A stretch of DNA of 32,932 nt from the sequence record SRR22947725_9170; one strand, written 5' to 3'. Every line of letters starts with the position of its first letter. Position 1 is the first letter of the stretch. The translations under genes and the position numbers were made by a program. Below, piece after piece: positions 1-28,304 of the stretch. Under the pieces are notes generated by a model. It ran no database searches. It was not told the DNA's origin and saw only the letters and a list, made by a program, of their open reading frames with translations.

Positions 1-652
1 TGCTGTCGGTGGCGGTCCGTGCAAACGCTTCGAAGGCTTCGAAGATTGCGTCCAAGGTTCCATAAAAGTCGAGATGATCCGGTGCGATGTTCGTAATCAA
101 TACGTGAGCGGGTTCATAGCCCACGAAGGATCTATCGGATTCGTCCGCTTCGATCACGAAGAGGTCATCCGATCCTGCCCGCGAGGAAACACCCCACTGG
201 CTGATCACTCCCCCATTGACACAGCCCGCGTCGATACCGACGGCTTCCAGCGCGGTGGCGAGCATCGCGGTGGTCGTCGTTTTGCCGTGAGATCCCGCAA
301 CGGCAAGAGGCGTTTTGCCCTGCAAAAGCCACCGCAGGGCTTCCGAGCGGTGGATAATCGTGAGGCCCCGATCGAGCGCTTCGAGATACTCCGGATTAGT
401 CTCGCGAACAGCGCTAGAGAAAACGACGGTGTCTACCCCGGCAAGGTGGGCGGCATCGTGACCAAGGAACACCTGGATACCTGAATGCCGCAACGACTCG
501 ACAACCTCGGAGTCAAACCGGTCGGAACCGGTCACTCGGTGTCCGCGCTCGGCAAAAACTCGGGCAATCCCGCTCATTCCAGAGCCTCCAACCCCGATAA
601 AGTGAATCGCACCCATCGCCTCCGGGAGAGCTCTGCCCAATTCAGGTTTCAT
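1..652 (-). CDS. murC: UDP-N-acetylmuramate--amino acid ligase MurC (partial; 3' end runs off the window)
   Basis: Hand translation from ATG 652 gives MKPELGRALPEAMGAIHFIGVGGSGMSGIAR...VAGSHGKTTTTAM...EADESD...ITNIAPDHLD. ATGA overlap with the murG stop; canonical dcw position. Not in the ORF track because it is truncated by the window. Confidence 0.96.
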   Translation of the reverse strand, partial: MKPELGRALPEAMGAIHFIGVGGSGMSGIARVFAERGHRVTGSDRFDSEVVESLRHSGIQVFLGHDAAHLAGVDTVVFSSAVRETNPEYLEALDRGLTIIHRSEALRWLLQGKTPLAVAGSHGKTTTTAMLATALEAVGIDAGCVNGGVISQWGVSSRAGSDDLFVIEADESDRSFVGYEPAHVLITNIAPDHLDFYGTLDAIFEAFEAFARTATDS

Positions 653-1737
653 TGCGACTCTTTCTGTGACAGCGTCATCACGGCTTCTGCCATCTGTTCG
701 GCGGCATCGTTCTTTCCTAACCCTGCCGCGGCCTCTTTCATTCTCTGCAGAGCAGCTTCCTCCGCCAAGATGGGCATAACTGTGGCCAGCACACCTTCGT
801 GGGTGAATTCATGGTCCGGCACAATCATCGCTGCGCCGCAGGCGACACTCTCCGAGGCGTTTCTTGCTTGTTCGCCATTACCCACCGGGTAGGGAACAAA
901 GATCGCTGGAAGGTGAAGCACCTGAATTTCAGAGACTGTCGCCGCGCCCGCGCGGGAAATCACTGCGGTCGCACTGGCAAGGGCCAGGTCCATGCGGTCG
1001 CAATAGTTCATTCCCCGATACCCCCGGGGCATATCGGCCGGGACGGTGTTGGCACCACCAACAATGTGGAGCACTTGCCACCCCGCCTGGGTGAGCACAC
1101 TAGCCAGAGCAGCAATTGTTTCGTTGATGCGCGTGGCGCCCTGTGACCCACCGGTGACCAGCAACGTCTTGGTCTGCGGCTTCAATCCGAAATGGGTGCG
1201 CGCCGTAGCGGGGCTCAGCGGCGAGTCCGGGTGAGTGATAGTTCTCTTCATCGGCATTCCGATGACCCTAGAGCTCGGAAATTTGGGGGTGGGAAAAGCA
1301 GTCAATACCTGGCGAGTGAAGCGGGCTCCTAGAAGGTTGGCAAAACCCGGCACAGCATTAGCTTCGTGGATCACCAGCGGGGTCTTGCGAAGCCACGCCG
1401 CGACATACACCGGGGCGCTGGCGTAGCCACCAAACCCCGCGACCACATCGGCCTTGTGGCGGGACAACATGCGAAGTGCCTGCAGGGTGGCGAACACAAA
1501 TCGTGGGAAAAAAGCAACAGCCAGGAGACTGAGTTTCCGCGGGAAAGGTAACCGCGCGAGAGTGTTAAGGCTTAGTCCGGCATCGGGAACGAGCCTCGAT
1601 TCCAGGCCTTCACGTGTGCCAACAACGACGATGTCCTCGGCCATCACGCCGTGGCTTCGTTGGAGCTCTTCCGCCACAGCCAAAAGAGGGTTGACGTGAC
1701 CGGCGGTGCCTCCGCCGGCAAGAATTACTCGGGTCAT
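649..1737 (-). CDS. murG: Undecaprenyldiphospho-muramoylpentapeptide beta-N-acetylglucosaminyltransferase MurG
   Basis: MTRVILAGGGTAGHVNP, GFGGYAS, HEAN, GGSQGA, SRAGAATVSE, GNGEQ motifs. ATG 1737 overlaps the ftsW stop (ATGA); the ORF-track extension to 2199 lies inside ftsW. Confidence 0.96.
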   Translation of the reverse strand: MTRVILAGGGTAGHVNPLLAVAEELQRSHGVMAEDIVVVGTREGLESRLVPDAGLSLNTLARLPFPRKLSLLAVAFFPRFVFATLQALRMLSRHKADVVAGFGGYASAPVYVAAWLRKTPLVIHEANAVPGFANLLGARFTRQVLTAFPTPKFPSSRVIGMPMKRTITHPDSPLSPATARTHFGLKPQTKTLLVTGGSQGATRINETIAALASVLTQAGWQVLHIVGGANTVPADMPRGYRGMNYCDRMDLALASATAVISRAGAATVSEIQVLHLPAIFVPYPVGNGEQARNASESVACGAAMIVPDHEFTHEGVLATVMPILAEEAALQRMKEAAAGLGKNDAAEQMAEAVMTLSQKESQ

Positions 1738-2966
1738 CGACGCCTTCCCCGCGCGGCAGAATAGTGCTCCGTCACCGAGATCGCGCCCGCGCGGTTGAGT
1801 GCCATAACTATCCCCACCGCCGCCAGCGAGGACAGGAGTGCCGATCCACCCACCGACATGAATGGCAGCGGAATCCCGAGTACCGGGAGCAGCTCCAGGA
1901 CCACAGCAATGTTGATGAGCGCTTGCCCAATCAACCAGACCATCACGCCCGCTGTCACCAAACGAGCGAAGGGATCTGGATTTTTTCTCACCAGGTGCGC
2001 CATCGTAATGGCGAGCACAACAAAGCACACAATGACAAGCCCCGCACCGAGAAGGCCCAGCTCTTCGCCCACGATGGCGAAGATGAAGTCGGTTTCTGCC
2101 TCGGGAAGCCAGGACCATTTTGCCCGGGAGTTGCCCAGTCCCACGCCGAACACTCCTCCAGAGCCCAACGCGAAGGTGGAATGAACCGTTTGCCAGCACG
2201 TGGTGAGGTACTCATCCTCTGTGCATCCAGAAAACCAGGTAGTGATTCGTCGAACCCGCGAGGGGGCAAAAAGTGCGGCCATCGCTCCCAAGGCGGCCAG
2301 GACGACGAGGATGCTGGCAAGGTGTCGGAGCCGAACCCCTGCGAGGAACAGCACACCAATAACCACCACAACCATCACGCCCACGGTTCCCAAGTCCTCG
2401 CCGAACATGACCATGCCGATAGACGCGACCACTCCAATCCCCAAAGGCGTCGCCAGGGTTCGAAGTTCTCCGATGGCCTCGAGTCGAGAAGACAGAATTG
2501 TTGCCATCCAGAGGATCAAAGTCACTTTGAGAAGCTCAGAAGGCTGCGCGGAAAAATTCCCCACGGCGATCCAGTTTCGGTTTCCCCCCGAAGTAACCCC
2601 TAGGGGTGTGAAGACAAGACTCTGTAAGAACAAGGCTGCGAGCAACCCCGCGGGGGCTGCTCGCAGGATCGCAATCGGTTGGACTCTGGCCAGTAACAAC
2701 ATGACCGGAATCCCCATTAACACCCACATGGCCTGCCGCAGAAAGACAGCAAAAAAGTTTCCATCATTACCCAGGGCCGAATCAACGAAAGAAGATGACA
2801 AGACCATCACGAGCCCGAAAATCACCAGGAAAAACACTATCGCCACCATCACCACGTAGTGGGGGGACTCCTGGGAAAACAGACGCTTGACGCTCACCAC
2901 GACGCGCGCGTCCGGAGCGGCTCGATTTTTGGCTTCAGGGTTTCTCACGGGTGCGCCACGAGCCAT
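1734..2966 (-). CDS. ftsW: SEDS-family peptidoglycan glycosyltransferase FtsW
   Basis: Multi-TM protein with GGNRNWI, QPSELLK, DLGT, GVGLGNS, LPEAETDFIFAIVGEELG, PLPFMSVGGS. ATG 2966 is preceded by AAGGGGTGG; alternative start 3005. Confidence 0.95.
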   Translation of the reverse strand: MARGAPVRNPEAKNRAAPDARVVVSVKRLFSQESPHYVVMVAIVFFLVIFGLVMVLSSSFVDSALGNDGNFFAVFLRQAMWVLMGIPVMLLLARVQPIAILRAAPAGLLAALFLQSLVFTPLGVTSGGNRNWIAVGNFSAQPSELLKVTLILWMATILSSRLEAIGELRTLATPLGIGVVASIGMVMFGEDLGTVGVMVVVVIGVLFLAGVRLRHLASILVVLAALGAMAALFAPSRVRRITTWFSGCTEDEYLTTCWQTVHSTFALGSGGVFGVGLGNSRAKWSWLPEAETDFIFAIVGEELGLLGAGLVIVCFVVLAITMAHLVRKNPDPFARLVTAGVMVWLIGQALINIAVVLELLPVLGIPLPFMSVGGSALLSSLAAVGIVMALNRAGAISVTEHYSAARGRRR

Positions 2967-3079
2967 CTCACCACCCCTTAGGTTGCAAATGTCAAGCGCG
3001 GGCATGGGTACAGGAACACGCGCCTTTCTAGTGTGCGCCCGTGGGTGAAAACCTCGGCGATGCCACGCCGGATGCGTTT

Positions 3080-4066
3080 TTAGGGCAGAGTCAGCACGCC
3101 AGCGATGACCGCCGGAGAAACATCAAAAGCCCGTGCGACAGCAATGGCACCCACGATCACCGGCAAATCCTCGGGGATGGTCCAGCCCGCTTCGCTCAAT
3201 TCCTCCAGGGTGGACACTTCGAGGGCGTGATTGGCTCTGTCATCGAGGAAGGCCCGGTCGACCAGGATGCCCTCCACCAGGCCCAAGTCGCTGCGGTCGG
3301 GGGAATCAAATCCCACCCCGATAGCGCGTGCTCCATCAGACACGTCGGCGTCTTCCACCAGTGACATGCTGGGTCCAAGACTTTTGCGATACACACAGGC
3401 GAGTTGGGTGCCATCGAAGAGGGCACCGTTTGTCAGGGTGGAGGTCTCCTCCACACAGACCGCAACATAGGGAGAACGGTGTCCCTCTCCCCGTGCCAGG
3501 AGCTGCGCCTGGTTGTCCGAGGCAAGAACTATCAACGCTTGATAGTCGTGCGGGTCGCGCAACGCATCGAGTAAGACGTCGGAATGGTGTCCGACCACCA
3601 ACGCGGGAACATCACCGGCATTCAGAAGACGTGCTGCGAGCTCTGCCAGACGCCTGCCATAGGTCTCACCGGCAACGAGCACCCAGGGCGAGAGGTGCTC
3701 TCTCTTATCCCGCACCCGCCAGGCAGCGTCGAGATCAGACCACACCAGAACTCCCTGGTTCTCAGCCGCCGTCACGACCGGGCTGTCTGCAGGAACCCCT
3801 GGGGACAGCACCAACGCCTCGGGAGAAAAATCCTTCAGCGCTGCGGACAGTCCTCGATCCCCCGCAACCACAGGAACAACCCCCAACACCTCGAGAATGC
3901 GAAGAGTATCGGGCCCTGCCTCATTGGCTAGGGCAAGTACATCGCAGCCGAGCTCAACAAACGTGTCCACCAGCGCAAACCCCGTAGCACCGAGCCCCAG
4001 CACCGCGACGCGATGGCCTGCCCAGTCGCTCGACCAACTTCTTAGCTGATCAATAGAACGAGTCAA
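3080..4066 (-). CDS. murD: Degenerate, C-terminally truncated MurD homologue (domains 1-2 only, catalytic motifs lost)
   Basis: Lies between mraY and ftsW. MurD-like N-terminus (SW..DW.G.RVAVLGLG.TG, VLSPG, AWRVRDK, LDALRDP, GILVDRAFLDDR). The P-loop position reads AGETYGRRL, and GNIG/ELSS/DHLD/HRxE/DSKATN are absent. TTG 4066 overlaps the mraY stop; alternative GTG 4078. Confidence 0.85.
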   Translation of the reverse strand: MTRSIDQLRSWSSDWAGHRVAVLGLGATGFALVDTFVELGCDVLALANEAGPDTLRILEVLGVVPVVAGDRGLSAALKDFSPEALVLSPGVPADSPVVTAAENQGVLVWSDLDAAWRVRDKREHLSPWVLVAGETYGRRLAELAARLLNAGDVPALVVGHHSDVLLDALRDPHDYQALIVLASDNQAQLLARGEGHRSPYVAVCVEETSTLTNGALFDGTQLACVYRKSLGPSMSLVEDADVSDGARAIGVGFDSPDRSDLGLVEGILVDRAFLDDRANHALEVSTLEELSEAGWTIPEDLPVIVGAIAVARAFDVSPAVIAGVLTLP

Positions 4067-5160
4067 CGGCTGAGCCACTCCAGGTAAAAGAGTCCCGCCC
4101 CCGCAGCCGCGCACAGACCCGCAATCAACCAGAAACGCACAACAATCGTGACCTCCGCCCAGCCTTTAATTTCGTAGTGGTGGTGAAGCGGCGAGGAATA
4201 AAAAATTCGTTTACCCTTGGTGGCTTTGAAATACAGCCGCTGCAGGATTACCGAACCCGTGAGAATCACAAACAAACCTCCCACCAGCGGGAGGAGCCCT
4301 TCTGTCCGGGAGAACAGTGCCAGCCCGGCCACGCCCCCACCTAAACCCAGTGAGCCGGTGTCTCCCATGAAAATCCTGGCGGGCGACGTGTTCCACCATA
4401 AGAACCCGATCAGGCTGGCACTGGCAATAGCGGCGACGGTGGTGAGCTCGAGAGAATCTCTGACTTCGTAGCACTTAAGGAAATTGTCTTCATCCGGGAA
4501 TACCCGGAAGCATGACTGATTGAACTGCCAGAAAGTAATCATGACATAGGCGACAAAGACCAACACCGCTGAACCGCTGGCGAGACCGTCCAAACCATCC
4601 GTCAGGTTTACGGCGTTAGAGGTCCCCACGATGATGAGTGTCGCCCACACCGCAAAACCGACCAAGACGCCAACCTGTCCCCACTGCGAGAAATCAATCA
4701 CGTCAGCATTTCGCACCAAGGACATGCCGGGGGCTGCCGGGGTTTGGCCATCGGAATCAGGAAAAGACACGGCCAACACGGCAAAGGTAACCGACACCAG
4801 AATCTGCCCGATGACTTTGCTTCGCGGGCTGAGGCCCAACGAGCGTTGCTGGCGAATCTTGGAGTAGTCATCCAAAAACCCCACGAACCCCAGGGCCACC
4901 ATCAAACCGATCACCAAAAGGGCGGACTGGCTGGGTGGGACACCTTCGATCAGGTGGGCAGTGAAGTACCCAAAAACAATGGCGAGCAAGATGACGATCC
5001 CACCCATTGTGGGCGTACCACGCTTGACGTAGTGGGTTTTGGGGCCATCTTGACGAATAAATTGTCCCCAGCCGATGGAGGCAAAAAGCCTGATGAAGAG
5101 TGGGGTGAGGAACAAAGAAAACCCCAGCGAGAGGGCGCTTCCCAGCAGCAGAATTCTCAA
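4063..5160 (-). CDS. mraY: Phospho-N-acetylmuramoyl-pentapeptide transferase MraY
   Basis: KRGTPTMGG, GFLDD, NAVNLTDGLDGL, FMGDTGSL and PLHHH motifs; multi-TM. Confidence 0.97.
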   Translation of the reverse strand: MRILLLGSALSLGFSLFLTPLFIRLFASIGWGQFIRQDGPKTHYVKRGTPTMGGIVILLAIVFGYFTAHLIEGVPPSQSALLVIGLMVALGFVGFLDDYSKIRQQRSLGLSPRSKVIGQILVSVTFAVLAVSFPDSDGQTPAAPGMSLVRNADVIDFSQWGQVGVLVGFAVWATLIIVGTSNAVNLTDGLDGLASGSAVLVFVAYVMITFWQFNQSCFRVFPDEDNFLKCYEVRDSLELTTVAAIASASLIGFLWWNTSPARIFMGDTGSLGLGGGVAGLALFSRTEGLLPLVGGLFVILTGSVILQRLYFKATKGKRIFYSSPLHHHYEIKGWAEVTIVVRFWLIAGLCAAAGAGLFYLEWLSR

Positions 5161-5609
5161 GCGAGGAGCTCACTCAGTCTTAACACCAGCGCACCCATAT
5201 CTTTTGGAACACCGCCCAAAACGACAACAACATCGCCGGGGCCAATGTCTTTCGACACCTCATCGTAGGCGCTAGCGACATCCTCGACGTGTTGTGACTC
5301 CCCGTCCCACGAACCTTCCCGACCCACCGAAGCAAAAATGGCCCTCGCCTCGGGCCCAATAGCAATGCACTTGGCCACATTAACTCGAACAATAAAGGCT
5401 CCGAAAGCCTCGAGGTCGTCGTAATCCGATTCTCCCGTCCATTCGATTGCCCCGGTGAGAACTATTTGGCGTTGTTCCGGAGTCACGGCGCCTCGCACGG
5501 CTTTGAGAAGATCGACTGCCGCCCGAGCCCCCACCACGCTGGTGCCGTCAATGATGGCGCCGCCTCCCCGAATCGGGTGAGAGGGGACACCAAGGTCCGC
5601 ATCCATCAC
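5157..5609 (-). CDS. murF: Stand-alone degenerate MurF C-terminal domain (~150 aa)
   Basis: Occupies the murF slot between murE and mraY with 4-nt overlaps at both ends (GTG 5609 on the murE stop; stop on the mraY TTG). Resembles MurF domain 3 (IVRVNV, REGSWDGES, PGDVVVV) but has no N-terminal or ATP-binding domain. Confidence 0.75.
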   Translation of the reverse strand: MMDADLGVPSHPIRGGGAIIDGTSVVGARAAVDLLKAVRGAVTPEQRQIVLTGAIEWTGESDYDDLEAFGAFIVRVNVAKCIAIGPEARAIFASVGREGSWDGESQHVEDVASAYDEVSKDIGPGDVVVVLGGVPKDMGALVLRLSELLA

Positions 5610-7162
5610 GGCCCCCTCTCTTCTGCGACCTCTGGCCACCCAGCATCTGCCAGCGCATTCTGAGCTTCTCGTTTGGCAGAATACGGCACCTTCTCTCCGC
5701 CGACATCGCGATAGGACTGCGAGCCTGGACCGCTCCAGAGCACGCTATCGCCCTCCCCCACCAGTGTGAGAGCAAACCTTATGGCCGTGGTGGGGTCAGG
5801 GACGTCATGCACATCGCGGTGTCGAACGGAGCGCGCACCTTCCAACAAACCCGCTCTAATCAGGCCAGGGTCCTCTTTTCGGGGATCGTCATCGGTCACA
5901 ATCACCACTTCTGCTCCGCGCGCAGCAACCGCGCCCATGACGGGTCGCTTCGTAGCATCGCGGTTGCCGGAGGTGCCGCACACCATCACAATTTTTCCTG
6001 TTGTGAGAGCCCTGATCGCAGCCAGCGTGTGTTCGTAAGCGTCGGCGCTGCGCCCCGCGTCCAAGAACACTGACGGACCTGAGGTTCCCGAAACTTTCTC
6101 TACTCTGCCAGGGATGGAGACTGGTATCCCTGTGGTTCCAGGACCCATGGCAGCGGAAATATCCGCCAGAGCGATACCGGATTCCTTCAGCATCACCACA
6201 GCGAGAGAGGCGTTGGCCACCATGTGCTCGCCAATAATCGGAGCTCTCAGCTCGAGCGATTCGCCCGCGGGCCCCCTCAGGTGCCACCTGGAGGTCTCCG
6301 AGGCCTCGTCGAGGACCTCATAGCTCCACTCACTGGGCCCTCGGGTGTGACCAGCGACGGTGGTGAAGGGGATCGTGACCTGCTGGGCGAGAGCGCGACC
6401 CCATTCACCATCAACACAGATCACACCGCGACGGGCCATGGCCGGCTGGAAAAGGGTTGCCTTGGCCTGGAGGTAGGGCTCCATCCCCCCAAAATCTTCA
6501 AAGTGGTCGTGGCTTAGATTGGTGAACCCCACCACAGCGCTCATCACACCCTGAAGCCTGTTCTTGACCAACGCTTGAGCGCTGACCTCAATTGCTACCC
6601 CACCCACACCTTTTTCACGACTCAGCGCAAGCATGGCGTGAATGTCGGGGGCTTCGGGGGTGGTCAGGCTCGAGGGGTACGCCACACCATCCACTCGGCG
6701 CTCTGCTGTCGTCGAAAGAGCCGTTCTCCGACCGATTCCCCTCAAGAGGGCTTCGAGGAGGAAAGCCGTTGAGGTTTTCCCATTCGTTCCCGTGACAGAA
6801 AAAACTGGCGGGTGATTCTCCTGCGCTGTGCCATACACGAGTGCGGACAGCGCTCCCAGAAGCTGTCGGGGATTTTCTGCAACAACGGCAGGGGTGGCTG
6901 TTGCGCCAAGGGCTGAGCATCCCGCGACATCGGTGAAGACCGCTACCGCGCCCTGAGCGAGAGCCTCATCCACCATCTCACTGCCGTGGCGATTGACACC
7001 TTGAAGAGCTACAAAGACATCTCCGGGCATCACCGCCTGGGTATGAAGGGCAACGCCGGTCACCGAAACGTCATCACCCTCGTGGGCGAGACCGAGGCCT
7101 CGAGCAATCTCTCCGAGCGTAACCGCGGGTGCACTCGTTGGGCGAAGTGGCCTGCTGGACAT
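5606..7162 (-). CDS. murE: MurE-family UDP-MurNAc-dipeptide--amino acid ligase (divergent substrate pocket)
   Basis: PGDVFVALQG, VTGTNGKTST, LTTPEA, EVSAQAL, FTNLSHDH, PGRVE, RDATKRPVMG, TDDDPR. Directly downstream of ftsI. Confidence 0.93.
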   Translation of the reverse strand: MSSRPLRPTSAPAVTLGEIARGLGLAHEGDDVSVTGVALHTQAVMPGDVFVALQGVNRHGSEMVDEALAQGAVAVFTDVAGCSALGATATPAVVAENPRQLLGALSALVYGTAQENHPPVFSVTGTNGKTSTAFLLEALLRGIGRRTALSTTAERRVDGVAYPSSLTTPEAPDIHAMLALSREKGVGGVAIEVSAQALVKNRLQGVMSAVVGFTNLSHDHFEDFGGMEPYLQAKATLFQPAMARRGVICVDGEWGRALAQQVTIPFTTVAGHTRGPSEWSYEVLDEASETSRWHLRGPAGESLELRAPIIGEHMVANASLAVVMLKESGIALADISAAMGPGTTGIPVSIPGRVEKVSGTSGPSVFLDAGRSADAYEHTLAAIRALTTGKIVMVCGTSGNRDATKRPVMGAVAARGAEVVIVTDDDPRKEDPGLIRAGLLEGARSVRHRDVHDVPDPTTAIRFALTLVGEGDSVLWSGPGSQSYRDVGGEKVPYSAKREAQNALADAGWPEVAEERGP

Positions 7163-7193
7163 GCGAGCCCCTCTCCCCGTTGTTGACTAGGCG

Positions 7194-8936
7194 CTACCAG
7201 GTTACCGGGGGAAGTACCGCGGGTTCACTCGAAGGTGCAACGCGATAGTGCTTGAGCACGTGGGACATCAGGTCATGAAAGGCAGGCGCGGCGGCGGTGG
7301 ACACCCGAGAAGTTTGGGGCTTGTAAAAACTCACCAACACCACATACTCAGGGTTCTCCGCAGGCGCCATCCCGGCCAAAGAAATAACCCGCTCTGCTCC
7401 ATACCCCTGGGAGTTTGCAATTTCGGCCGTTCCGGTCTTAGCCGCCACCCGATACCCGGGGATACCGAGGACATTTCTGAGCGGCCCCTGGGCAACGATG
7501 GTTTCCAGGCTCCGAATCACCTGGTCCGAGGCGCTTTGTGAAACAACTCGAATCGGTTCTTGCACGGGGTTCTCCACGAGCACGCCGGCATTGGACACGC
7601 ACCCCTCCACCAAGCGCAGCGGAACGCGAAGACCGCCGTTGGCCAGTGTTTGATAGGAACCAGCCATTTGAGCGGCGGTCACAGATATTCCCTGGCCAAA
7701 GAACTGGTTATAACGAGAGACGATATCCAAACCGCCCCCCGTTTTCAAGAGACCGTTTGATTCACCCAAAAAATCAACGCCTGTGGCAGAGCCAAAGCCA
7801 AACTTTTGGAAATAGCTGGTGGCCGTAGCGCGCGGCATGCGGCTAGAGAGTACGGAGAGACCGGTGTTTGAGGACGTATATAACACTCCAGCAGTGGTGA
7901 GTTGAGTGTCCTGAGCCACCGAAGAGTTTTTGATGTAGCGATCGTCGTAGAGCCTGAAAATGCCGGGAGCAACGATCTTCTCTTCGGCATACGTATATCC
8001 GCCATCAATCAGCATGGCAACGCCAATGGCTTTCATGATGGACCCAGGCTCATAGGGGGAGGAAAAAACCCGAGCTCCGGTGTTCGATGTGGGGGTTTGG
8101 GCAAAGTCGTTGGGGTCAAAAGTGGGCCAGTCAGCGGCTGCCAAAATATGGCCATCCGACACCCGCACAACCATGGCAGAACCGTGCTCGGCACCCAGCC
8201 GGCTTCCGTGTTCGGCCAACTGTTGCAACACGTACCACTGAAGGTCACTATCAAGGGTCAGGACAACGTCACCGCCATGAACGGGGTCCACCACCGTCTC
8301 AGTGGTGCCGGGGAGCCTGACGCCATCGGCACCGCGCTGATAGGTCGCCACGCCATTATCAGCGGCTAAACAGTCGTCCCAATCCAGTTCAACACCCGCG
8401 AGGGGCTGGTCGGTACCGAGCATTCCCGTGATGTTTCCCGCTACCGGACCGAAAGGATAGGTGCGCTCACGCACCAAATCCATTTGTAGCCAGGGGATGC
8501 CCAACTCGCGAAGGGCGAGATGGACCTCTGGGCTAACACCTTTGACCAAGTAAGTGAAGCGAGCCTCGGGGTCTTTACGGATGGCAAACAACATTTCGTC
8601 GGCGTTTGCTCCGGTGATGTCAGCAATTTCAGAAAGCGCGACCTCCAAAGAAAGGGTCTCCCCCGCGCGGCGAAAATCACCGCTCACGCTGGGGTCTGCA
8701 CTGACGTCATAGCGGTCGACATCGAGAGCCAAGTCATTTCCAAAGCTGTCGACGATTGACCCTCGAGACGCCCAGATTGTCCCACTAGTGGTGCGGATGG
8801 CCTCGGACTCTCCCTGAAGCTCGCTGGCCCGCACCACCTGAACATCGACCAGTTTGGTCATCAACAGGCTGGCGGTCGCAAAAACTAACACCAGGACCAG
8901 AGCCATACGGCGGCCTGTCATGCGCTGGTGGGTCAC
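7194..8936 (-). CDS. ftsI: Class B penicillin-binding protein FtsI (PBP3 / PbpB)
   Basis: N-terminal TM anchor, RGSIVD, LTLDSDLQ, and transpeptidase motifs SIMK (EPGSIMK), SSN and KTGT. Confidence 0.95.
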   Translation of the reverse strand: MTHQRMTGRRMALVLVLVFATASLLMTKLVDVQVVRASELQGESEAIRTTSGTIWASRGSIVDSFGNDLALDVDRYDVSADPSVSGDFRRAGETLSLEVALSEIADITGANADEMLFAIRKDPEARFTYLVKGVSPEVHLALRELGIPWLQMDLVRERTYPFGPVAGNITGMLGTDQPLAGVELDWDDCLAADNGVATYQRGADGVRLPGTTETVVDPVHGGDVVLTLDSDLQWYVLQQLAEHGSRLGAEHGSAMVVRVSDGHILAAADWPTFDPNDFAQTPTSNTGARVFSSPYEPGSIMKAIGVAMLIDGGYTYAEEKIVAPGIFRLYDDRYIKNSSVAQDTQLTTAGVLYTSSNTGLSVLSSRMPRATATSYFQKFGFGSATGVDFLGESNGLLKTGGGLDIVSRYNQFFGQGISVTAAQMAGSYQTLANGGLRVPLRLVEGCVSNAGVLVENPVQEPIRVVSQSASDQVIRSLETIVAQGPLRNVLGIPGYRVAAKTGTAEIANSQGYGAERVISLAGMAPAENPEYVVLVSFYKPQTSRVSTAAAPAFHDLMSHVLKHYRVAPSSEPAVLPPVTW

Positions 8937-8945
8937 GAAGACTGC

Positions 8946-9584
8946 CTAGCGCGTAATCGGCGAAGGAATAGAGCCACCGAAGGTGGCCACGGGAATAGGC
9001 TGGGTCACCATGGCGGCATGAATGGATGCTTCACCGGACTCAACCACGGGAACGTGTGCTGCGCGCAGGGCGTCCTCCGCGCTGAGTTCATAGGCTGCTT
9101 GAGCGCTGAGAGAAGCAAAGACGTCTGTCACGATCTGGACAGGCACGAACGCCTCCGTCCCCGCGGTCACCGTGTAAATCTGGCCCTGTCCAGCTTCGGC
9201 TGCAGGTGCTGCTTCCCCCAGGACTGCTCCATCAGAGACCCGCAAATACGCTGGGTTGTTGTCTTCAACCATTCCCATCGAACCCGCCAGAGACGCGAGA
9301 GTATCCGGCGCGGTGAGCGCACCGATTTCTTCCGCGACGATTTGCAAGCTTTGTTCGCTTTGACGCATCTCACCTTTGAGAGATGCAATCTCGTAGGCAC
9401 CGCTGGAGACACTGATGGAAAGCAACAGCTGCCCTCCTAGAATCGCAAAAATGCCCGCCAAAGTCACCACGATATAGCGCAGCTTTGGCGCGGTGGTTGT
9501 GCTGGTTTCTTTGCGTGTCGCGGGAGCCCCGGTTACCGGACTTCGGCGGCGGCTCGCGGCGGAAATAGCTACTCGTGCGGTCAT
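8946..9584 (-). CDS. ftsL: FtsL-like cell division protein
   Basis: Basic N-terminus, one TM (YIVVTLAGIFAILGGQLLLSI), coiled coil, LGMV-like MGMV...PAYLR segment; lies between rsmH and ftsI. Confidence 0.75.
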   Translation of the reverse strand: MTARVAISAASRRRSPVTGAPATRKETSTTTAPKLRYIVVTLAGIFAILGGQLLLSISVSSGAYEIASLKGEMRQSEQSLQIVAEEIGALTAPDTLASLAGSMGMVEDNNPAYLRVSDGAVLGEAAPAAEAGQGQIYTVTAGTEAFVPVQIVTDVFASLSAQAAYELSAEDALRAAHVPVVESGEASIHAAMVTQPIPVATFGGSIPSPITR

Positions 9585-10540
9585 CGACTCACCCTTCGGG
9601 TTCTCTCTGCTGCCCGGGTGCGCACCGATGCGCTCCTAGGGTTTACTGCTCGCTCTTCCGGGGTTGCCATTTCGGCTCCCCGGGTGATCTCGCTGAATTC
9701 GCTGCGGTGTTCCGGCAGCTCCTCAGGAAGCCCCAGGGGTGCAGTGGAAGAACTCCGCTGGCGGATGACCTTCTTCACCAGACGGTCTTCGCCCGAGTGA
9801 TAGGACATGACGACGATGCGCCCGCCTACCGCGAGACGATCCATGGCAACGGGGAGCACTGCCGCTAGAGACTCCAACTCCCGATTTACTTCGATTCGTA
9901 GCGCTTGGAAAACTCTCTTAGCCGGGTGACCGCGGTCTTTCAGTGCATAGGGGGTAGCGCTCTGCAAGAGGTCCACTACTTGAGCTGTGGTGCGAAGTGG
10001 GCTGCCGTCGCGATGGGCAACAATGGCCCTCGCGTACCGACCGGCCATTTTTTCATCACCAAAAGTCCGGAAAATATCGGCGAGCTCATCCACCGAGTAC
10101 GTGCGAAGAATCCCTTCTGCTGTGACATCGTCACTCACGTCCATGCGCATATCCAGGGGCGCATCCACGGCATAAGAGAAGCCGCGCTCTGGCTTATCTA
10201 GGTGAAGCGAGGAGACTCCCAAGTCCAAGAGAATCCCCGCAGGTTCTCCTCCTGGAAAATGATGGTCTAACGCTGCTGCCATCGTGTCGTAGCGCCCGTG
10301 GTGGAAAGTGAATCTGTCGCTGAAGCGCGCCAGTCTGAGGGACGCGAGGTTCCCCGCCTCGATGTCTCGGTCAATGCCGAGCAGGCGGAGTGCGGGGAAT
10401 GCTTCGAGGAAGGCCTCGGCGTGACCGCCCAATCCGAGAGTGGCATCAACCAGTAGGGCGCCTTCGTGGCCCAGAGCGGGACCCAGCAGCTCGAGAACGC
10501 GATCTCGCATTACGGGGATATGTTCATACGTTGTCATCAT
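9581..10540 (-). CDS. rsmH: 16S rRNA m4C1402 methyltransferase RsmH (MraW)
   Basis: HIPVM, DATLGLGGHA, DLGVSS, RGFSY, PLDMRM, FQALRIEVNREL, SYHSGEDR, NPRSAS motifs. Confidence 0.97.
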   Translation of the reverse strand: MMTTYEHIPVMRDRVLELLGPALGHEGALLVDATLGLGGHAEAFLEAFPALRLLGIDRDIEAGNLASLRLARFSDRFTFHHGRYDTMAAALDHHFPGGEPAGILLDLGVSSLHLDKPERGFSYAVDAPLDMRMDVSDDVTAEGILRTYSVDELADIFRTFGDEKMAGRYARAIVAHRDGSPLRTTAQVVDLLQSATPYALKDRGHPAKRVFQALRIEVNRELESLAAVLPVAMDRLAVGGRIVVMSYHSGEDRLVKKVIRQRSSSTAPLGLPEELPEHRSEFSEITRGAEMATPEERAVNPRSASVRTRAAERTRRVSR

Positions 10541-10571
10541 CGATGGCCCTGTCCTGGGCCCGGATTCGAGA

Positions 10572-10631
10572 TTCCCCTCCGTTCTTTCGACCTGGAACCG
10601 GGGAAGGTGATACAGGGCGAACGGACGGGAG
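10572..10631 (-). ncRNA. mraW RNA motif-like cis-regulatory hairpin in the mraZ-rsmH spacer
   Basis: On the minus strand TCCCGTCCGTTC pairs with GAACGGAGGGGA, with an inner CCTG/CAGG stem and a loop containing CCTTCCCC. This matches the actinobacterial mraW motif in position and loop sequence. Confidence 0.8.
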
Positions 10632-10645
10632 TCACGAACACGGGA

Positions 10646-11077
10646 TTACAGGAGTCCGGGAATCACCTCCTCCTCGGTCTCGGAAAAGGCTTGCTCGCGA
10701 TCGCTGTAGTACTGGTCCCAGGCGGTCGTCGCCCAAATCTCGGCGCGGTTTCCTGCACCGATGACGGTCAATTCACGCTCGAGCCCTGCGTAATCGCGAA
10801 GGGCAGGAGGGACGGTGACGCGGTTTTGCTTATCCGGAATTTCAGAACTCGCCCCGGAGAGGAACAGTCGCAAAAAGTCACGCCCCGCCTTAGAGGTGAG
10901 GGGAGCATCCCGAAGCCGCTCCACGTGAGTGTCGAAATCTTTGGCTGTGAAGACGTAGATGCAACGCTCTTGCCCCCGCGTCAGAACTAAACCGTTGGCC
11001 AATTCCTCCCGAAACCGGGCGGGAAGGATGACTCGGCCCTTGTCGTCGAGCTTGGGAGCGTGCGTACCCAAGAACAT
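10646..11077 (-). CDS. mraZ: Division/cell wall cluster transcriptional repressor MraZ
   Basis: [23 protein letters not shown]; second repeat [15 protein letters not shown]; 143 aa. Confidence 0.97.
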
Positions 11078-12864: not shown

Positions 12865-13203
12865 TTAGAGGGCAAGAACTTGAGCGACCCTTCGAACTTC
12901 TGTTTTGCGGCCCCAGCGAATCGCTTCCACCGGGGTGACACCCAATCCTTCGTGATGGCTCAGTAGCCACTCCACCGCTTCCTCTTCACTAAATCCGCCA
13001 TCGAGCAGAACAATCACGGTTCCCGCCAAGTCTTTCAGCGGCTCCTCACCGTTAAGAAAAGCTTCGGGAATACAAAAGACGCCCTCAATCTTTTGCCCTA
13101 AGAGAGCTCGATCTTCGACAAGCCGGCGAACTTTGCCAGGGATGGTGTCCAGCCGCTCTGCGACATCGGGGACGCTGAGCCAGGAGGTTTCTTCGGGGAA
13201 CAC
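12865..13203 (-). CDS. Rv2175c-family DNA-binding protein
   Basis: WLSVPDVAERL HTH start, IPEAFL, GTVIVLLDGGF, GRKTEVRRVAQ; conserved position between idsA and the PASTA kinase. Confidence 0.88.
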   Translation of the reverse strand: MFPEETSWLSVPDVAERLDTIPGKVRRLVEDRALLGQKIEGVFCIPEAFLNGEEPLKDLAGTVIVLLDGGFSEEEAVEWLLSHHEGLGVTPVEAIRWGRKTEVRRVAQVLAL

Positions 13204-13374
13204 GGGTTAACTGTGCCAGACATTCGGCTTGTGGAATGACATAACGAATGTTTCGGGGAGATTAACCCTCGCCACAGCAGTAACAATGATTGACTCGAGT
13301 ATCATCCTGTGACACCGTTAACTGCGGAGGGTCGCTCAGCATCTGAGCGCACATTCGCGACACGATAGGACTTG

Positions 13375-14817
13375 ATGTCTGAAACCGAGCTCCCGCACTC
13401 CTCCTTAGAGGAGCCTGTGGAGAGCCTTGAGCGTCGAGTGTTTCGCGACCTTGCTCCGCGGGTGGCTCAGTTTGACCCACCCTGCCCCACCGGTCCTGGC
13501 TCCCTCCGGAAACGGGTTTTTTCCAGCATCCCCCTCATCATGACGGGAACTCTCGCTACCGGGGTCATCGCCACTCCTGGCATCGCTTCTCTCGCTCCGG
13601 ATGAAACCGAGAGCGCAGGGGGTAGTGCCGAGGAGTCTGACGCGCGCCCCAGTTTTTCTGACCGACTCCAAACAGCTTTTCTCCCCATCGCCCAGAGGAT
13701 ATTGAGCGCTACGGGGTCAGAGCTGCCGGCGACCTACGCGGTCCAATCAGGCGACAGTGTTTCCGGCATTGCCGATCGGTTCGGTATCCCCACCCCAGCA
13801 ATCTTGACCCTCAATGGACTGGGCTGGGACGCCGTGGTTCATGAAGGGCAGATTCTGAAGCTCACACCCGAGCCGACAAAGAAGCGGCAAGCGTCGCCTG
13901 CCAGGGTTCTGGGTGATGGCTACCTCGTTCACAACGGGGAAACCGCCAGTGAGATCGCGGATCGCCTCGGCATCTCTACCGAAGCGCTCCTCGAACACAA
14001 CGACCTGGATAAGGGCGCCGTCATTTATGCGGGACAGTTTATTTCCTTACCCGGCGTTACCAAGGACGTGGTATCCCGAGACGCGGTGACCCCCGCCCCT
14101 GTTTTCCCCACAATCATCGCTGCATCACTTGAGAGCACCGAAGCCACCAGCGCCACCGAGGATGACGCAGAGCCATCTCCCACGTTCGATTCAGCCGACC
14201 TCGAGTTATTAGAGAGCCCCGCCCTCATCACGGTGAAGGTGCCAGAGAAAAAGGTCGTTGCAAAAGTGACCCCGGCCCCCGCTGCCCCGGCTCCTGTGGC
14301 GGCTTCTCCTGCCCCATCGTCCCCGTCGCCCTCGGCCGCCGAAGTTTCAGAACAAGAAGAAGAAGCTGCGCCGAACGGAGTAGGACAACCCGTCAGCGGA
14401 AGCATCACTCCGTTAAATGATGAACGCAGAGGGAACGCGCAGATCATTATCAATGTCGGTCGAGAGTTGGGCGTGCCCGATTACGGCATTGTGATCGCCC
14501 TTGCCACTGCCATGCAAGAGTCTTCACTGCGCAACATCAACTGGGGTGACCGCGATTCGGTCGGTCTATACCAGCAGCGGCCCTCCACCGGCTGGGGCAC
14601 CGTGGAGGAACTCCTTGACCCGGCGTATGCCACACGGTTGTTCTTAGGAGGCGCTTCTAACCCCAACACGGGACGCACCCGAGGGCTGCTCGATGTTTCG
14701 GGTTGGGAAAAGATGACGCTGACCGACGCCGCCCAGCGAGTTCAAATTTCAGCGTATCCAGAGGCCTATGCAAAATGGGAAGCTAGCGCCTGGGCCTGGC
14801 TCTATGAATTGACGTAG
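13375..14817 (+). CDS. LysM-repeat cell wall protein with C-terminal lysozyme-like domain
   Basis: Two LysM repeats (YAVQSGDSVSGIADRFG, YLVHNGETASEIADRLG), Pro/Ala linker, C-terminal ALATAMQESSLRN..GDRDSVGLYQQRPSTGWG. Hydrophobic segment near residues 50-70. Start uncertain. Confidence 0.85.
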   Translation: MSETELPHSSLEEPVESLERRVFRDLAPRVAQFDPPCPTGPGSLRKRVFSSIPLIMTGTLATGVIATPGIASLAPDETESAGGSAEESDARPSFSDRLQTAFLPIAQRILSATGSELPATYAVQSGDSVSGIADRFGIPTPAILTLNGLGWDAVVHEGQILKLTPEPTKKRQASPARVLGDGYLVHNGETASEIADRLGISTEALLEHNDLDKGAVIYAGQFISLPGVTKDVVSRDAVTPAPVFPTIIAASLESTEATSATEDDAEPSPTFDSADLELLESPALITVKVPEKKVVAKVTPAPAAPAPVAASPAPSSPSPSAAEVSEQEEEAAPNGVGQPVSGSITPLNDERRGNAQIIINVGRELGVPDYGIVIALATAMQESSLRNINWGDRDSVGLYQQRPSTGWGTVEELLDPAYATRLFLGGASNPNTGRTRGLLDVSGWEKMTLTDAAQRVQISAYPEAYAKWEASAWAWLYELT

Positions 14818-14865: not shown

Positions 14866-16842
14866 ATGGACGCCCCCACCGCTGACCCTCTTGTGGGGTT
14901 GCTGGTTGATGGTCGCTATCTCATTCAAAGCCGGGTCGCACGTGGGGGTATGGCCACCGTCTATCAGGCACTTGACCAGCGCTTAGAGAGACCTGTGGCC
15001 ATCAAGGTCATGCACCCTCACCTCGCCGAGGATGCTGAGTTCACCAGGCGCTTCATCCAAGAAGCGAGGCAAGCGGCTCGCCTTGCGCACCCGAACATCG
15101 TCAATGTCTTCGATCAGGGCCAAGAAGGCGCCCTCACCTACATCGTGATGGAATATTTGCCGGGCATCACGCTGCGAGAGTTACTGCAGGATTTTGGAGC
15201 CCTCACCGTGGGGCAAACCCTTGACATTGTGACCGCGGTGCTCAATGGTCTCGACGCAGCCCACACGGCGGGCATCGTGCATCGGGACTTGAAGCCCGAA
15301 AACGTTTTGCTTGCGGATGACGGTCGCATCAAAATAGCTGATTTTGGCCTTGCCAGAGCTTCCACCCACAACACCGCAACTTCTCAAGCTCTTTTGGGGA
15401 CCATCGCCTACCTCTCCCCCGAGCTGATTTCTCGGGGCGAAGCAGACCTGCGAAGTGACATCTATGCCCTCGGCATCATGATGTTTGAAATGTTGACCGG
15501 TGAACAGCCCTACCAGGGCGATCAAGCAGTCACCATTGCCTACCAACACGCGAATGACATTGTCCCCGCCCCCAGCACGAAAAACCCTGACATCCCCGCT
15601 GCCTTTGACGAACTCGTTGACTGGTGCACGCGTCGCTCGCCGGACGAGAGACCTCCCCACGCTCGCGCCGTGTTGGAACACGTCCGTTCCTTAGAGTCCC
15701 TCGTCGGCGCACCCCCCACCCAACCGCTTCGAACCCTCGATCAAACGATCGCCATGACGCAGCGAATGTCCCCCCTAGACCTGGAGGAAACCCAGGTTCT
15801 GAACCCCAAGGCCGGTGTGTTTGATGGTTTAGAACCCACCTCCTCCATCGGCACTATTTCCCAAGACACCGGGGAGATCCCGCCTCAAGAACCCGTTGCG
15901 CGCCGTCGCAGAAGTGGCGGGTCACGGTGGGCATGGATCAGCGCCTTCATCCTCGTGATTGTCATTGGTGGAGGAGGAGGAGCCGCGTTGTGGTGGGTGA
16001 ATGGGCCGGGGGCGATGACCACCGTCCCGGACGTTTCCGGAATCAGCGTCAGCACCGCCACCACAACTCTGGTGGCAGCGGAGTTAGTGGTGTCAGCAAC
16101 ACCGCTGGAAGAATTTGACCTTGTCCTGTCCGCCGGCACCGTGAAGGGAACGTCACCCGGCTCTGGCGAAAACGTGGATAAGGGCACTGAGGTGACACTG
16201 ATTGTGTCGCTCGGCCCCAACCCCGTTAGCGTCCCCTCGTTGGCAGGGGAAACCCTCGATAGCGCCCGCGCCCTGCTGGAGGAACTCAACCTCATACTGG
16301 GTGTGACGCGGGAAGAATTTAGTGCCAGCGCGGCGAAGGGAACACTGTTGCGCCTCACCGATACCTCCGGGCTTGCCCTCGCCCCCGGGAGCGAAATACT
16401 CGCTGGGTCCACGCTCGACGCCGTCCTCTCGGCAGGTGTCATTCCCGATGTCACCGGGCTCACCGTGGATGAAGCCCAAGCGATGCTCAACCAGGTCGGA
16501 CTCAGCGGAGTCGTCGGTGGCGATGGCGCCTACTCCGATTCGATTGCCGAGGGCTCCGTCGTCGAGATTTTGGCCGCCACTACCCAAACCTTCGCCCCCG
16601 GTGACACCCTCACCCTCGTTGTCTCACGGGGGCCCGAACTCGTAATGGTGCCCGACGTGGTGGGCGACACCATTGCCGACGCGAAGGCAAAACTGGAATC
16701 ACTCGGTTTCAGCGTGGAAGTCCGATCGGAATATCCGGAATCAGATTGGGACCGCTCATTCGCCCGGGTGACCAGCATCGACCCCAGTGCCAGTCAGGAA
16801 GTGGTGAAAGGTACCACCATCATTCTGCGCAGCTTCATTTAG
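14866..16842 (+). CDS. pknL: PASTA-domain Ser/Thr protein kinase (PknL/PknB type)
   Basis: ARGGMATVY, VAIKVM, HRDLKPEN, DFGLA, GTIAYLSPE, one TM, about four PASTA repeats (VPDVSG, VPSLAG, IPDVTG, VPDVVG). Synteny with Rv2175c and aroG matches pknL. Confidence 0.9.
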   Translation: MDAPTADPLVGLLVDGRYLIQSRVARGGMATVYQALDQRLERPVAIKVMHPHLAEDAEFTRRFIQEARQAARLAHPNIVNVFDQGQEGALTYIVMEYLPGITLRELLQDFGALTVGQTLDIVTAVLNGLDAAHTAGIVHRDLKPENVLLADDGRIKIADFGLARASTHNTATSQALLGTIAYLSPELISRGEADLRSDIYALGIMMFEMLTGEQPYQGDQAVTIAYQHANDIVPAPSTKNPDIPAAFDELVDWCTRRSPDERPPHARAVLEHVRSLESLVGAPPTQPLRTLDQTIAMTQRMSPLDLEETQVLNPKAGVFDGLEPTSSIGTISQDTGEIPPQEPVARRRRSGGSRWAWISAFILVIVIGGGGGAALWWVNGPGAMTTVPDVSGISVSTATTTLVAAELVVSATPLEEFDLVLSAGTVKGTSPGSGENVDKGTEVTLIVSLGPNPVSVPSLAGETLDSARALLEELNLILGVTREEFSASAAKGTLLRLTDTSGLALAPGSEILAGSTLDAVLSAGVIPDVTGLTVDEAQAMLNQVGLSGVVGGDGAYSDSIAEGSVVEILAATTQTFAPGDTLTLVVSRGPELVMVPDVVGDTIADAKAKLESLGFSVEVRSEYPESDWDRSFARVTSIDPSASQEVVKGTTIILRSFI

Positions 16843-26955: not shown

Positions 26956-27759
26956 ATGCGAGTGATTAGTTTGAGTTCCCTGAAGGGCGGCGTCGGGAAG
27001 ACGACTGTCACTCTTGGGCTTGCCTCCGCCGCCTTTGCCAAGGGCTTACGCACTCTCGTGGTTGACATGGACCCGCAGTCCGATGCCAGCACTGGCATGG
27101 ATGTGACGGCCGGACGTCATCTCAACATTTCCAATCTCCTGGCTCACCCGCGTGCCTCTGCGGTGCGAAAGGCCATTGTCCCTAGCGGTTGGACCCGCTC
27201 CCACAAAGGCCAGGTCGATGTCCTGCTTGGTTCACCTGCCGCCATGGCGTTTGACGAGCCAACGTTGACGAAGAAACAAATCTGGAGGATGGAAGAAATC
27301 CTGGCCGCTGTCGAAGACGACTACGACATTGTGCTCATCGATTGCCCGCCCTCGCTCAATGGTCTTACCCGCATGGCGTGGACAGCCAGCGACCGCGTTG
27401 CCGTGGTCACGGAGCCGAGTTTGTTCTCCGTTGCCGCCACCCAGCGTGCATTCCGGGCTATTGAAGAGCTTCGGCGAGGTGTCTCCCCCCGGCTTCAGCC
27501 TCTGGGGGTTGTCGTCAATCGTGTTCGTCCCCAATCGATTGAACACCAGTATCGAATTGATGAACTGAAGCAAATGTTTGGGGCATTAGTAATGCAGCCG
27601 GAGCTTCCCGAACGGGTAGCACTGCAACAAGCCCAAGGGGCGGCGAGCCCCCTCCACGTGTGGCCCGGAGAAAGTGCAGAAGAAATGGCTTTTAGCTTCA
27701 ACCTGATTCTTGACCGGGTAATTCGGTCTGCTCAGATTCTTGAACCAGAACCCGTTTAA
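26956..27759 (+). CDS. ParA/Soj-family ATPase
   Basis: LKGGVGKTT, DMDPQ, IDCPPSL. Confidence 0.9.
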   Translation: MRVISLSSLKGGVGKTTVTLGLASAAFAKGLRTLVVDMDPQSDASTGMDVTAGRHLNISNLLAHPRASAVRKAIVPSGWTRSHKGQVDVLLGSPAAMAFDEPTLTKKQIWRMEEILAAVEDDYDIVLIDCPPSLNGLTRMAWTASDRVAVVTEPSLFSVAATQRAFRAIEELRRGVSPRLQPLGVVVNRVRPQSIEHQYRIDELKQMFGALVMQPELPERVALQQAQGAASPLHVWPGESAEEMAFSFNLILDRVIRSAQILEPEPV

Positions 27760-28304
27760 CTCGCGCGCTGATTACGGCGAGCTGCTAACTCGTCTCTGGG
27801 GTCTTGCCCTGCAGTGGTGGCCTTGACCGACACCAACGAGGATTCGACCTCGCGCAGAACTTTACCCACGGCAATGCCAAAAACGCCCTGACCTTGAGAT
27901 ACCAGGTCAATGACTTCATCGTTGGAGGTGCACAGGTAGACGCTGGCGCCATCGCTCATCAATGTCGTCTCTGCCAGGTCGCTTATCCCCGAGACGCGAA
28001 GCTGTTCCACGGCAATCCTGATCTGCTGAAGGGAGATTCCCGTATCCAGAAGGCGTTTGACGAGCTTCAACACCAAAATGTCGCGGAAACCGTACAAACG
28101 CTGGGAGCCCGAGCCCTGGGCGAGTTGAACGGTCGGCGCCACCAGGTTCGTGCGGGCCCAGTAATCGAGTTGACGATAGGTAATCCCGGCGGCGTTAGCG
28201 GCGATGTTTCCCCGGTATCCCTGCTCGTGATCGATGATTGGCATTCCGTCGGTGAACAGTAAATCCTTGGCGTAACGCTCGCCCGTGTGATCCTGGGAAT
28301 CCAT
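27756..28304 (-). CDS. MerR-family transcriptional regulator (Rv1830-like)
   Basis: GITYRQLDYWART, GSGSQRLY, RLLDTGISLQQIR, TTLMSDGASVY, GQGVFGIAVG. Confidence 0.92.
   Translation of the reverse strand: MDSQDHTGERYAKDLLFTDGMPIIDHEQGYRGNIAANAAGITYRQLDYWARTNLVAPTVQLAQGSGSQRLYGFRDILVLKLVKRLLDTGISLQQIRIAVEQLRVSGISDLAETTLMSDGASVYLCTSNDEVIDLVSQGQGVFGIAVGKVLREVESSLVSVKATTAGQDPRDELAARRNQRAS

Follow-up and report, generated by a model that had tools for sequence, protein, structure and literature searches.

Putative pseudoenzyme remnants of MurD and MurF retained in the dcw cluster of an aquatic actinobacterial lineage

The closest described counterpart of the system treated here is the MurD2/MurL pathway of Xanthomonas oryzae, in which MurD2 ligates L-Glu and the residue is then epimerised by MurL at the level of the nucleotide precursor, yielding the normal D-Glu dipeptide; according to the accessible part of the minireview PMC8788868, the route occurs in organisms without a D-Glu source, and the orthologs of Micromonospora and Salinispora were assayed as well. 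In the DNA stretch SRR22947725_9170 (32,932 nt; "the window" hereafter denotes this whole stretch), the division and cell wall (dcw) cluster carries in the murD and murF slots two shortened open reading frames (ORFs), termed MurD* and MurF*, which are the subject of this analysis. The difference from the described pathway is that a displaced canonical murD persists here as a conserved dead fragment, the MurD2/MurL assignment in relatives of the window being made from sequence. We consider it probable that murD and murF of this cluster had their functions taken over by other genes and were afterwards trimmed to non-catalytic proteins that the cell still requires.

Mur ligases are antibiotic targets and have long been argued to act as a complex, an idea that is hard to test because loss of an essential enzyme kills the cell. 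Binding of Mur ligases to one another is described for MurE and MurF of Bordetella pertussis (abstract of PMC10214165); this is a precedent for a gene order constrained by assembly, a logic shared by the explanation favoured here, whereas the partners in that complex are active fused enzymes and the abstract describes no dead fragments. In Phocaeicola dorei, the MurF-derived part of a MurF'-Alr chimera modulates the kinetics of alanine racemase and does not act as a ligase (accessible part of PMC13726279); there it is fused to Alr, whereas MurF* is a separate protein, a lone domain 3 encoded in the dcw cluster. A literature search for Mur ligase pseudoenzymes returned no paper.

MurD* lies on the minus strand at 3080-4066 (328 residues from an in-frame TTG at 4066; the longest ORF reaches a GTG at 4114 and has 344 residues), in the ortholog position between mraY and ftsW. 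The only Pfam match of the 344-residue frame was PF21799 (MurD-like_N; 32.5 bits, cut-off 27), PF08245 being absent, and on TIGR01087 the frame scored 45.3 bits over model positions 1-157 of 441, which is below the cut-off of 211.95. The relationship to MurD is nonetheless evident from an identity of about 40% over residues 5-342 to the MurD of all 151 genomes that were sampled from the family of G001, the genome nearest to the window. Alignment with 12 other family genomes revealed the P-loop site to read AGETYG--RR versus TGTNGKTTT in active family MurD, and the GNIG and DH..WHG stretches to be gone; the P-loop site was degenerate in all 10 short MurD forms found in the family. The ORF stops at the boundary of domains 2 and 3, with all of domain 3, the C-terminal domain that binds D-Glu in MurD, missing. 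An AlphaFold2 model had a mean predicted local distance difference test score (pLDDT) of 94.1, and its best match in the Protein Data Bank (PDB) via Foldseek was domains 1-2 of MurD 3lk7 (E 2.2e-15, query-normalised TM-score (TMq) 0.73). In comparison with canonical MurD (TIGR01087; 3lk7, 1e0d), MurD* shares the dcw position and the fold of domains 1-2, but has neither P-loop nor domain 3.

MurF* lies at 5157-5609 on the minus strand (150 residues from a GTG at 5609 or 149 from an ATG at 5606; the longest ORF, to 5639, has 160 residues). The sole Pfam match of the 160-residue frame was PF02875 (Mur_ligase_C; 30.6 bits, cut-off 28.4), and the score on TIGR01143 was 17.9 bits at positions 309-414 of 418, below the cut-off of 288.6, with domains 1-2 and the P-loop absent. 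When aligned with the C-terminal parts of eight full-length family MurF proteins, MurF* was found to lack NDAYNASP, GEMxELG and KSSxS, which we take to be substrate-binding stretches, and to have kept EGSWDGES, which is common to most of the full-length proteins compared, a few of them carrying a single substitution in it. In Foldseek, the best PDB matches of the AlphaFold2 model (mean pLDDT 86.3) were Mur ligase C-terminal domains, from MurF, MurE and Mpl (2am1, E 5.8e-06, TMq 0.70). Canonical MurF (TIGR01143; 2am1, 4cvm) and MurF* have in common the slot between murE and mraY, the domain 3 fold and EGSWDGES; MurF* differs by its length of just 150 residues and the loss of domains 1-2 and of the three stretches named. 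Profile scores and alignments agree with the earlier note on this DNA, which had described the genes in both slots as shortened and devoid of ligase motifs.

The way in which the two proteins were reduced bears on a reading in which the remnants are ligand-binding regulators and not structural partners, MurD*, for example, binding UDP-MurNAc-L-Ala via its Rossmann-like domain 1 and sensing it or passing it to MurD2. The fold of MurD* is predicted at pLDDT 94, and conservation is highest in domain 1, where GLGxTGF and SPGV, presumably UDP-binding in MurD, are kept. MurF*, however, lost the stretches aligning with the dipeptide-binding motifs, so that ligand binding cannot account for both remnants alike, and we grant this reading a small chance.

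Both remnants are tied to intact neighbours on the same strand, namely murE (5606-7162; PF01225, PF08245 and PF02875; TIGR01085 327.2 bits, cut-off 257.3) and mraY (4063-5160; PF00953 and MraY_sig1; TIGR00445 281.4 bits, cut-off 192.05). The murE stop and the MurF* start share GTGA at 5606-5609 (TGA 5608-5606, GTG 5609), the MurF* stop and the mraY start share TTGA at 5157-5160 (TGA 5159-5157, TTG 5160), and the mraY stop and the likely MurD* start share TTGA at 4063-4066 (TGA 4065-4063, in-frame TTG 4066); mraY thus sits between the remnants with a 4-nt overlap with each. The position of the start codons within the overlaps makes 328 residues for MurD* and 149-150 for MurF* the likely products, in agreement with public gene calls of 327-347 and 142-215 residues, respectively. 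Downstream of the MurD* stop (TAA 3082-3080), a 74-nt spacer (3006-3079) precedes the ftsW start (ATG 3005); MurD* is therefore not coupled to ftsW, and the spacer is too small for a domain 3 remnant. The coupling to neighbours by 4-nt overlaps that the earlier note described consequently holds for murE/MurF*, MurF*/mraY and mraY/MurD*, but not for MurD*/ftsW.

The same gene structure was recovered independently of the window. G001, with 23% of 31-mers in common with the window, carries the same open frames for MurD* and MurF* without frameshift, at 98-99% protein identity. In run X4, one contig of 16,160 nt spans positions 3000-7200 with 19 substitutions and no gaps, and two contigs of run X7 are likewise without gaps; these runs belong to two studies other than that of the best-matching run. 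The frames are accordingly free of frameshifts, as had been proposed, and the locus is not a misassembly, G001 and the contigs of X4 and X7 having the same structure without indels. At least 0.81 of the sampled words of the window were present in 13 DNA runs from nine studies, and the runs with window sequence are aquatic, marine, estuary and freshwater metagenomes. Contigs from two RNA-library runs (two studies) also cover and bridge both remnants, such libraries being able to hold DNA. Close homologs are labelled Pontimonas sp. and Salinibacterium by their sources. For a Pontimonas strain, the peptidoglycan genes are described as "mostly typical" in the genome paper (PMC6106888), whose main text, as far as accessible, mentions neither murD nor murF nor glutamate racemase, which the supplementary gene tables may list.

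The three 4-nt overlaps, together with the weak TTG start of mraY, could point to functionless leftovers in slow decay, kept open only as a translational coupling spacer toward mraY or the downstream starts. The length of MurF* varies by lineage in the manner of progressive N-terminal trimming (142-215 residues in gene calls, 144-380 in open frames), and a dcw murD remnant with a stop codon occurs in another family (G366). A spacer, however, requires an open frame and not sequence conservation, and the ratio of non-synonymous to synonymous substitution rates (dN/dS) between the window and G001 was 0.115 for MurD* (7 non-synonymous and 21 synonymous changes; p 1.3e-07 versus neutrality) and 0.042 for MurF* (1 and 8 changes; p 1.4e-04). 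A value near 1 had been predicted for decay; those obtained are as low as in the neighbouring murE (0.169), mraY (0.054) and ftsW (0.186). Comparisons of the window with G124 or G030 were not used because synonymous sites were saturated. Among the environmental variants listed (40 of 53, from four runs), 9 of 9 in MurD*, 4 of 7 in MurF*, 14 of 17 in mraY and 3 of 6 in murE were synonymous. The host genomes are, moreover, streamlined (1.3 Mb), and across the 74-nt gap MurD* would have no coupling to serve.

Public protein collections from metagenomes contained more than 100 MurD* clusters (327-347 residues, 45-80% identity) and 44 MurF* clusters (gene calls of 142-215 residues). An alignment of 80 MurD* sequences revealed 34 invariant columns, and one of 40 MurF* sequences, with 45-83% identity to the window copy, revealed 26; the latter include VGREGSWDGESQ, inside the stretch SVGREGSWDGESQH. 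This conservation, like the low dN/dS values and the uniformly synonymous MurD* variants, speaks against leftovers in decay, which we regard as unlikely. Distances of MurD domains 1-2 relative to MurE were 1.12-1.67 for pairs of remnants, 1.15-1.94 for pairs of full-length proteins and 2.7-3.2 for mixed pairs, which is consistent with rapid change at the transition and constraint resuming afterwards. For MurF domain 3 relative to MurE, the values were 0.92-1.59 for remnant pairs versus 0.50-0.73 for full-length pairs. Judged from their sequences, both remnants are probable pseudoenzymes, combining the loss of catalytic residues with purifying selection on the coding sequence. The source annotation names both as active ligases, which would mislead metabolic reconstructions.

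Candidates for the displaced activities were found in G001 (1.3 Mb, 97% complete), in two modules that both lie on another contig than the dcw cluster. The first consists of a MurL homolog of 467 residues (L001:60-1463; NF041275, 329 bits, E 2.8e-98), directly upstream of and adjoining a MurD2-type ligase of 470 residues (L001:1456-2868; 278 bits on the MurD model, above the cut-off). The second consists of a membrane MurF of 519 residues with Mur ligase middle and C-terminal domains (L009:982-2541, contig C2), directly followed by a second Ddl, termed Ddl2 (L009:2563-3702, contig C2). The models scoring best on the membrane MurF were those of MurF (187.3 bits on MurF model positions 65-402), and GSYGKT and DDTYNSNP are retained. 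Membrane helices, 4-5 by prediction, stand where domain 1 would be, and the first 160 residues hold at least four hydrophobic segments. The Mur ligase middle domains of G001 comprise, as a full set, MurC, MurD2, MurE, the membrane MurF, a MurT-like protein and FolC; a housekeeping-type Ddl is also present, and the profile searches of this genome found neither murI nor a canonical MurF. The search that had been suggested for other MurD, MurF, ddl and murI thus yielded, for G001, MurD2, the membrane MurF and two Ddl, with murI absent. From these genes, MurD2/MurL appear to perform the D-Glu step in G001, and the membrane MurF and Ddl2 appear to replace MurF.

The MurL homologs of the family score 329-385 bits, under the equivalog cut-off of 700 that is set for Xanthomonadales. 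The membrane MurF resembles MurT of the MurT/GatD amidotransferase in that, of the three Mur ligase domains, the first is missing; MurT presumably acts on lipid II, as its NCBIfam family name indicates. It differs from MurT by its N-terminal membrane domain, by scoring best on MurF (187 bits) and by adjoining a Ddl. The MurT-like gene of G001 (L005:1363-2631) and a GatD-like gene (L005:2628-3359) adjoin the gene of the principal sigma factor; the scores of this pair are weak (93.8 and 29.2 bits), far under the equivalog cut-offs. For the membrane domain (residues 1-175), the ESM Atlas gave a best score of 0.88 to unnamed clusters, which serve as leads only. A phmmer search against 1.84 billion representatives gave 67 matches (E of 0.001 or below), each lying at the N-terminus of the matched protein; the whole proteins among them have about 500-550 residues, the others being shorter and possibly fragments, and no fusion to another enzyme was seen among the 67. 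No paper on a membrane-anchored MurF was found in a literature search.

The presence of these modules also bears on the idea, put forward in the earlier note, that a non-canonical stem peptide is built by an undescribed route in the absence of MurD and MurF activities. No active murD or murF is encoded in the window, and the replacement MurF is without domain 1 and paired with its own second Ddl, for which reason the last step may differ in detail. That MurF nevertheless keeps GSYGKT and DDTYNSNP, a housekeeping Ddl is present, and murE, mraY and the transpeptidase-type ftsI are normal. With the MurD2/MurL pathway already published (accessible part of PMC8788868) and P-loop and DDTYNSNP kept in the membrane MurF, an undescribed route is unneeded, and we hold it to be extremely unlikely.

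In the family sample, MurL was detected in 11 of 151 genomes. Glutamate racemase (TIGR00067) was found in 135 genomes and not in the other 16, among which are all 11 MurL-positive ones; D-amino-acid aminotransferase was not searched for. A canonical MurD domain 3 query gave a strong match beside the N-terminal part of dcw MurD in 141 genomes; in the other 10 (G001, G124, G030, G036, G128, G092, G098, G061, G029 and G123) it matched weakly and only inside MurD2. A dcw MurD without domain 3 was thus restricted to 10 genomes, all MurL-positive, and occurred in none of the 140 MurL-negative ones. The eleventh MurL-positive genome, G049, which is sister to the short-form G061, has a full-length dcw MurD with a P-loop and may represent an intermediate state. 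This protein (L048:5205-6794, 530 residues) reads TGSSGKSTT with altered neighbouring motifs, and the genome has no murI. MurL and MurD2 were adjacent in all nine genomes examined (G001, G124, G030 and 6 of 6 other loci).

Membrane MurF was detected in 12 of the 151 genomes, being the sole MurF-type match in 11, and all 12 have just the short MurF* between murE and mraY. It is adjacent to Ddl2 in 9 of 10 loci, the tenth being at a contig edge. In G123, MurF* occurs with a canonical MurF outside the dcw cluster, and G135 has both kinds of replacement, a membrane MurF and a canonical MurF outside the cluster. The canonical full-length genes in question are at L075:744-2649 (G135) and L076:711-2718, minus strand (G123). 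Two canonical MurF matches each were seen in G046, G052 and G148.

Each remnant therefore tracks its own replacement, MurD* occurring with MurL/MurD2 and MurF* with a replacement MurF. This distribution contradicts a further proposal of the earlier note, namely that MurD* (domains 1-2) and MurF* (domain 3) are complementary and could join to form a pseudo-enzyme shaped like a ligase. The two pieces do sum to one copy of each Mur ligase domain, and they occur together in the window, G001, G124, G030, G098 and G029, as well as in G123 with its different MurF replacement. The remnants, however, also occur independently: a full-length dcw MurF is present in 4 of the 10 MurD* genomes (G061, G092, G036, G128) and a full-length MurD in 7 of the 13 MurF* genomes (G142, G053, G044, G135, G087, G080, G118). 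In addition, the conserved parts of the remnants predate the truncations, since they are largely conserved in the full-length family enzymes too. A mutual scaffold of the two is thus quite improbable.

In a sample of the class, 26 of the 401 genomes, spread over 12 families, were MurL-positive (25 of 400 without the unpublished G186), which extends the MurD2/MurL route in Actinomycetia beyond the genera named in PMC8788868; Microbacteriaceae are not in that list, as far as the minireview is accessible. A literature search for a MurL epimerase in Microbacteriaceae returned no paper. The fate of dcw murD varied among 23 of the other MurL-positive class genomes: the canonical gene was kept in G328, G342, G323, G300 and G336, it was replaced in place by MurL-MurD2 in G199, G229 and G489, and it was not detected in some others. 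Partial dcw MurD pieces were found in G366 (positions 1-304, with a TGA inside), G500 (2-180) and G536 (368-436). Their coordinates are G366:C1:190011-190973, G500:C6:22594-23130 and G536:C95:49343-49555, and one partial piece is a 135-residue frame matching only domain 3. By gene content, the conserved remnant is a feature of the family of G001 and not of the MurD2/MurL route generally.

A tree was built on MurE, MraY and FtsW, all dcw genes; on this tree, the MurL label needs six changes and the membrane-MurF label five. Grouping of the MurL-positive genomes as one clade was rejected (approximately unbiased (AU) test, p 3.8e-39). In a MurD tree under a site-heterogeneous model, MurD* of G098 grouped with its neighbours G053 and G142, whose MurD is full-length (Shimodaira-Hasegawa-like approximate likelihood ratio test (SH-aLRT) 94), and the short form of G061 was sister to the full-length form of G049 (94). 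From the two placements it follows that truncation at the same domain boundary arose at least twice. No count beyond at least two origins is claimed, because long-branch attraction among the short forms could mislead the trees, for which only dcw genes were used. A FastTree clade of all MurL-linked MurD (0.95) had pointed to a single origin of MurD*; one origin is not claimed here, as G098 left that clade under the site-heterogeneous model, the others staying unstarred (93).

The explanation that we favour, displacement followed by trimming, can be put as follows. By the genes of G001 and other family members, D-Glu would enter the stem peptide via MurD2/MurL, and the membrane MurF beside Ddl2 is the only MurF-type ligase left. 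In the window, the old murD has kept domains 1-2 and lost its ATP-binding loop and domain 3, and the old murF has kept domain 3 alone and lost its substrate motifs. Both are still open frames, coupled in translation to murE and mraY and held by purifying selection. Each would preserve a non-catalytic job of the ancestral full-length enzyme that the incoming enzymes cannot supply. This job would most likely be a contact within a Mur ligase/MraY assembly or, for MurD*, alternatively the binding of the UDP-MurNAc substrate. An assembly contact is suggested by the remnants flanking and overlapping mraY, by the binding of Mur ligases to one another and by the ability of a MurF-like domain to modulate another enzyme.

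A joint reading goes further, combining an ancestral role in a MurE-MurF-MraY-MurD assembly, of which the fragments would be the minimal scaffolding parts, with a reordering of the last cytoplasmic precursor step by the membrane MurF. With a polytopic membrane domain where the UDP-binding domain 1 would be, this enzyme could attach D-Ala-D-Ala at the membrane, perhaps to a tripeptide that MraY has already linked to lipid. We advance this combination only tentatively and think it rather unlikely to be right in both its parts.

Several points weigh against displacement with a retained non-catalytic role. The replacements were demonstrated in G001 and other relatives and not in the genome of the window itself; tblastn of MurL, MurD2, the membrane MurF and Ddl2 against the window gave no match, so its 32.9 kb is without them. 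The dN/dS values derive from few changes (28 for MurD* and 9 for MurF*), and for MurF* the proportion of synonymous variants listed has p 0.08. By its distances relative to MurE, MurF* is somewhat relaxed, evolving about twice as fast as the same domain of active MurF. The RNA-library contigs over the remnants are no proof of transcription, given possible DNA carry-over. Because other families keep, lose or break dcw murD, the remnant is no general requirement of the MurD2/MurL route. The earlier note had proposed that replacement ligases are encoded elsewhere and that the copies persist as structural partners; the replacements (in G001) and the persistence (by purifying selection) stand, and as for the partner role, we infer that the remnants act as non-catalytic partners of an assembly that is itself a candidate.

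At this locus, chemistry would be separated from the other roles of Mur ligases, as catalysis has moved to other genes while certain old domains were kept, more than once and under selection. The retained fragments point to surfaces important for a non-catalytic role. If the assembly contact is real, these genomes would be natural separation-of-function mutants.

The remaining dcw genes follow the usual actinobacterial order on the minus strand (cluster at 2-11077). They comprise the 5' part of murC (2-652, the first 217 codons, cut by the window end; PF01225 and PF08245, P-loop GSHGKT), murG (649-1737; PF03033 and PF04101; the longest frame is 649-2199, the start being most likely near 1737), ftsW (1734-3005; PF01098, 288.2 bits), the transpeptidase-type ftsI (7194-8936), an ORF of 212 residues assigned to ftsL by its position in the cluster (8946-9584), rsmH (9581-10540) and mraZ (10646-11077). 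The ORF in the ftsL position had no match in a Pfam search at E up to 1e-5. The neighbours of the remnants had been described as intact, and murE, mraY, ftsW, murG, ftsI, rsmH and mraZ indeed match Pfam fully, the murC fragment having its GSHGKT.

Upstream of the cluster, genes for an Rv2175c-like DNA-binding protein (12865-13203, minus strand), a LysM protein (13372-14817, plus strand) and a PASTA Ser/Thr kinase (14866-16842, plus strand) were found, a neighbourhood that we take to be the one known from mycobacteria. A DUF368/VCA0040-like protein (31971-32867, minus strand; PF04018, 213.8 bits), resembling undecaprenyl phosphate translocases, shares the window with the dcw genes that use the lipid carrier. 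Two MerR-family regulators and an FHA-domain protein are encoded in a row at 27756-29593 on the minus strand, adjoining a CDP-alcohol phosphatidyltransferase gene (29640-30218).

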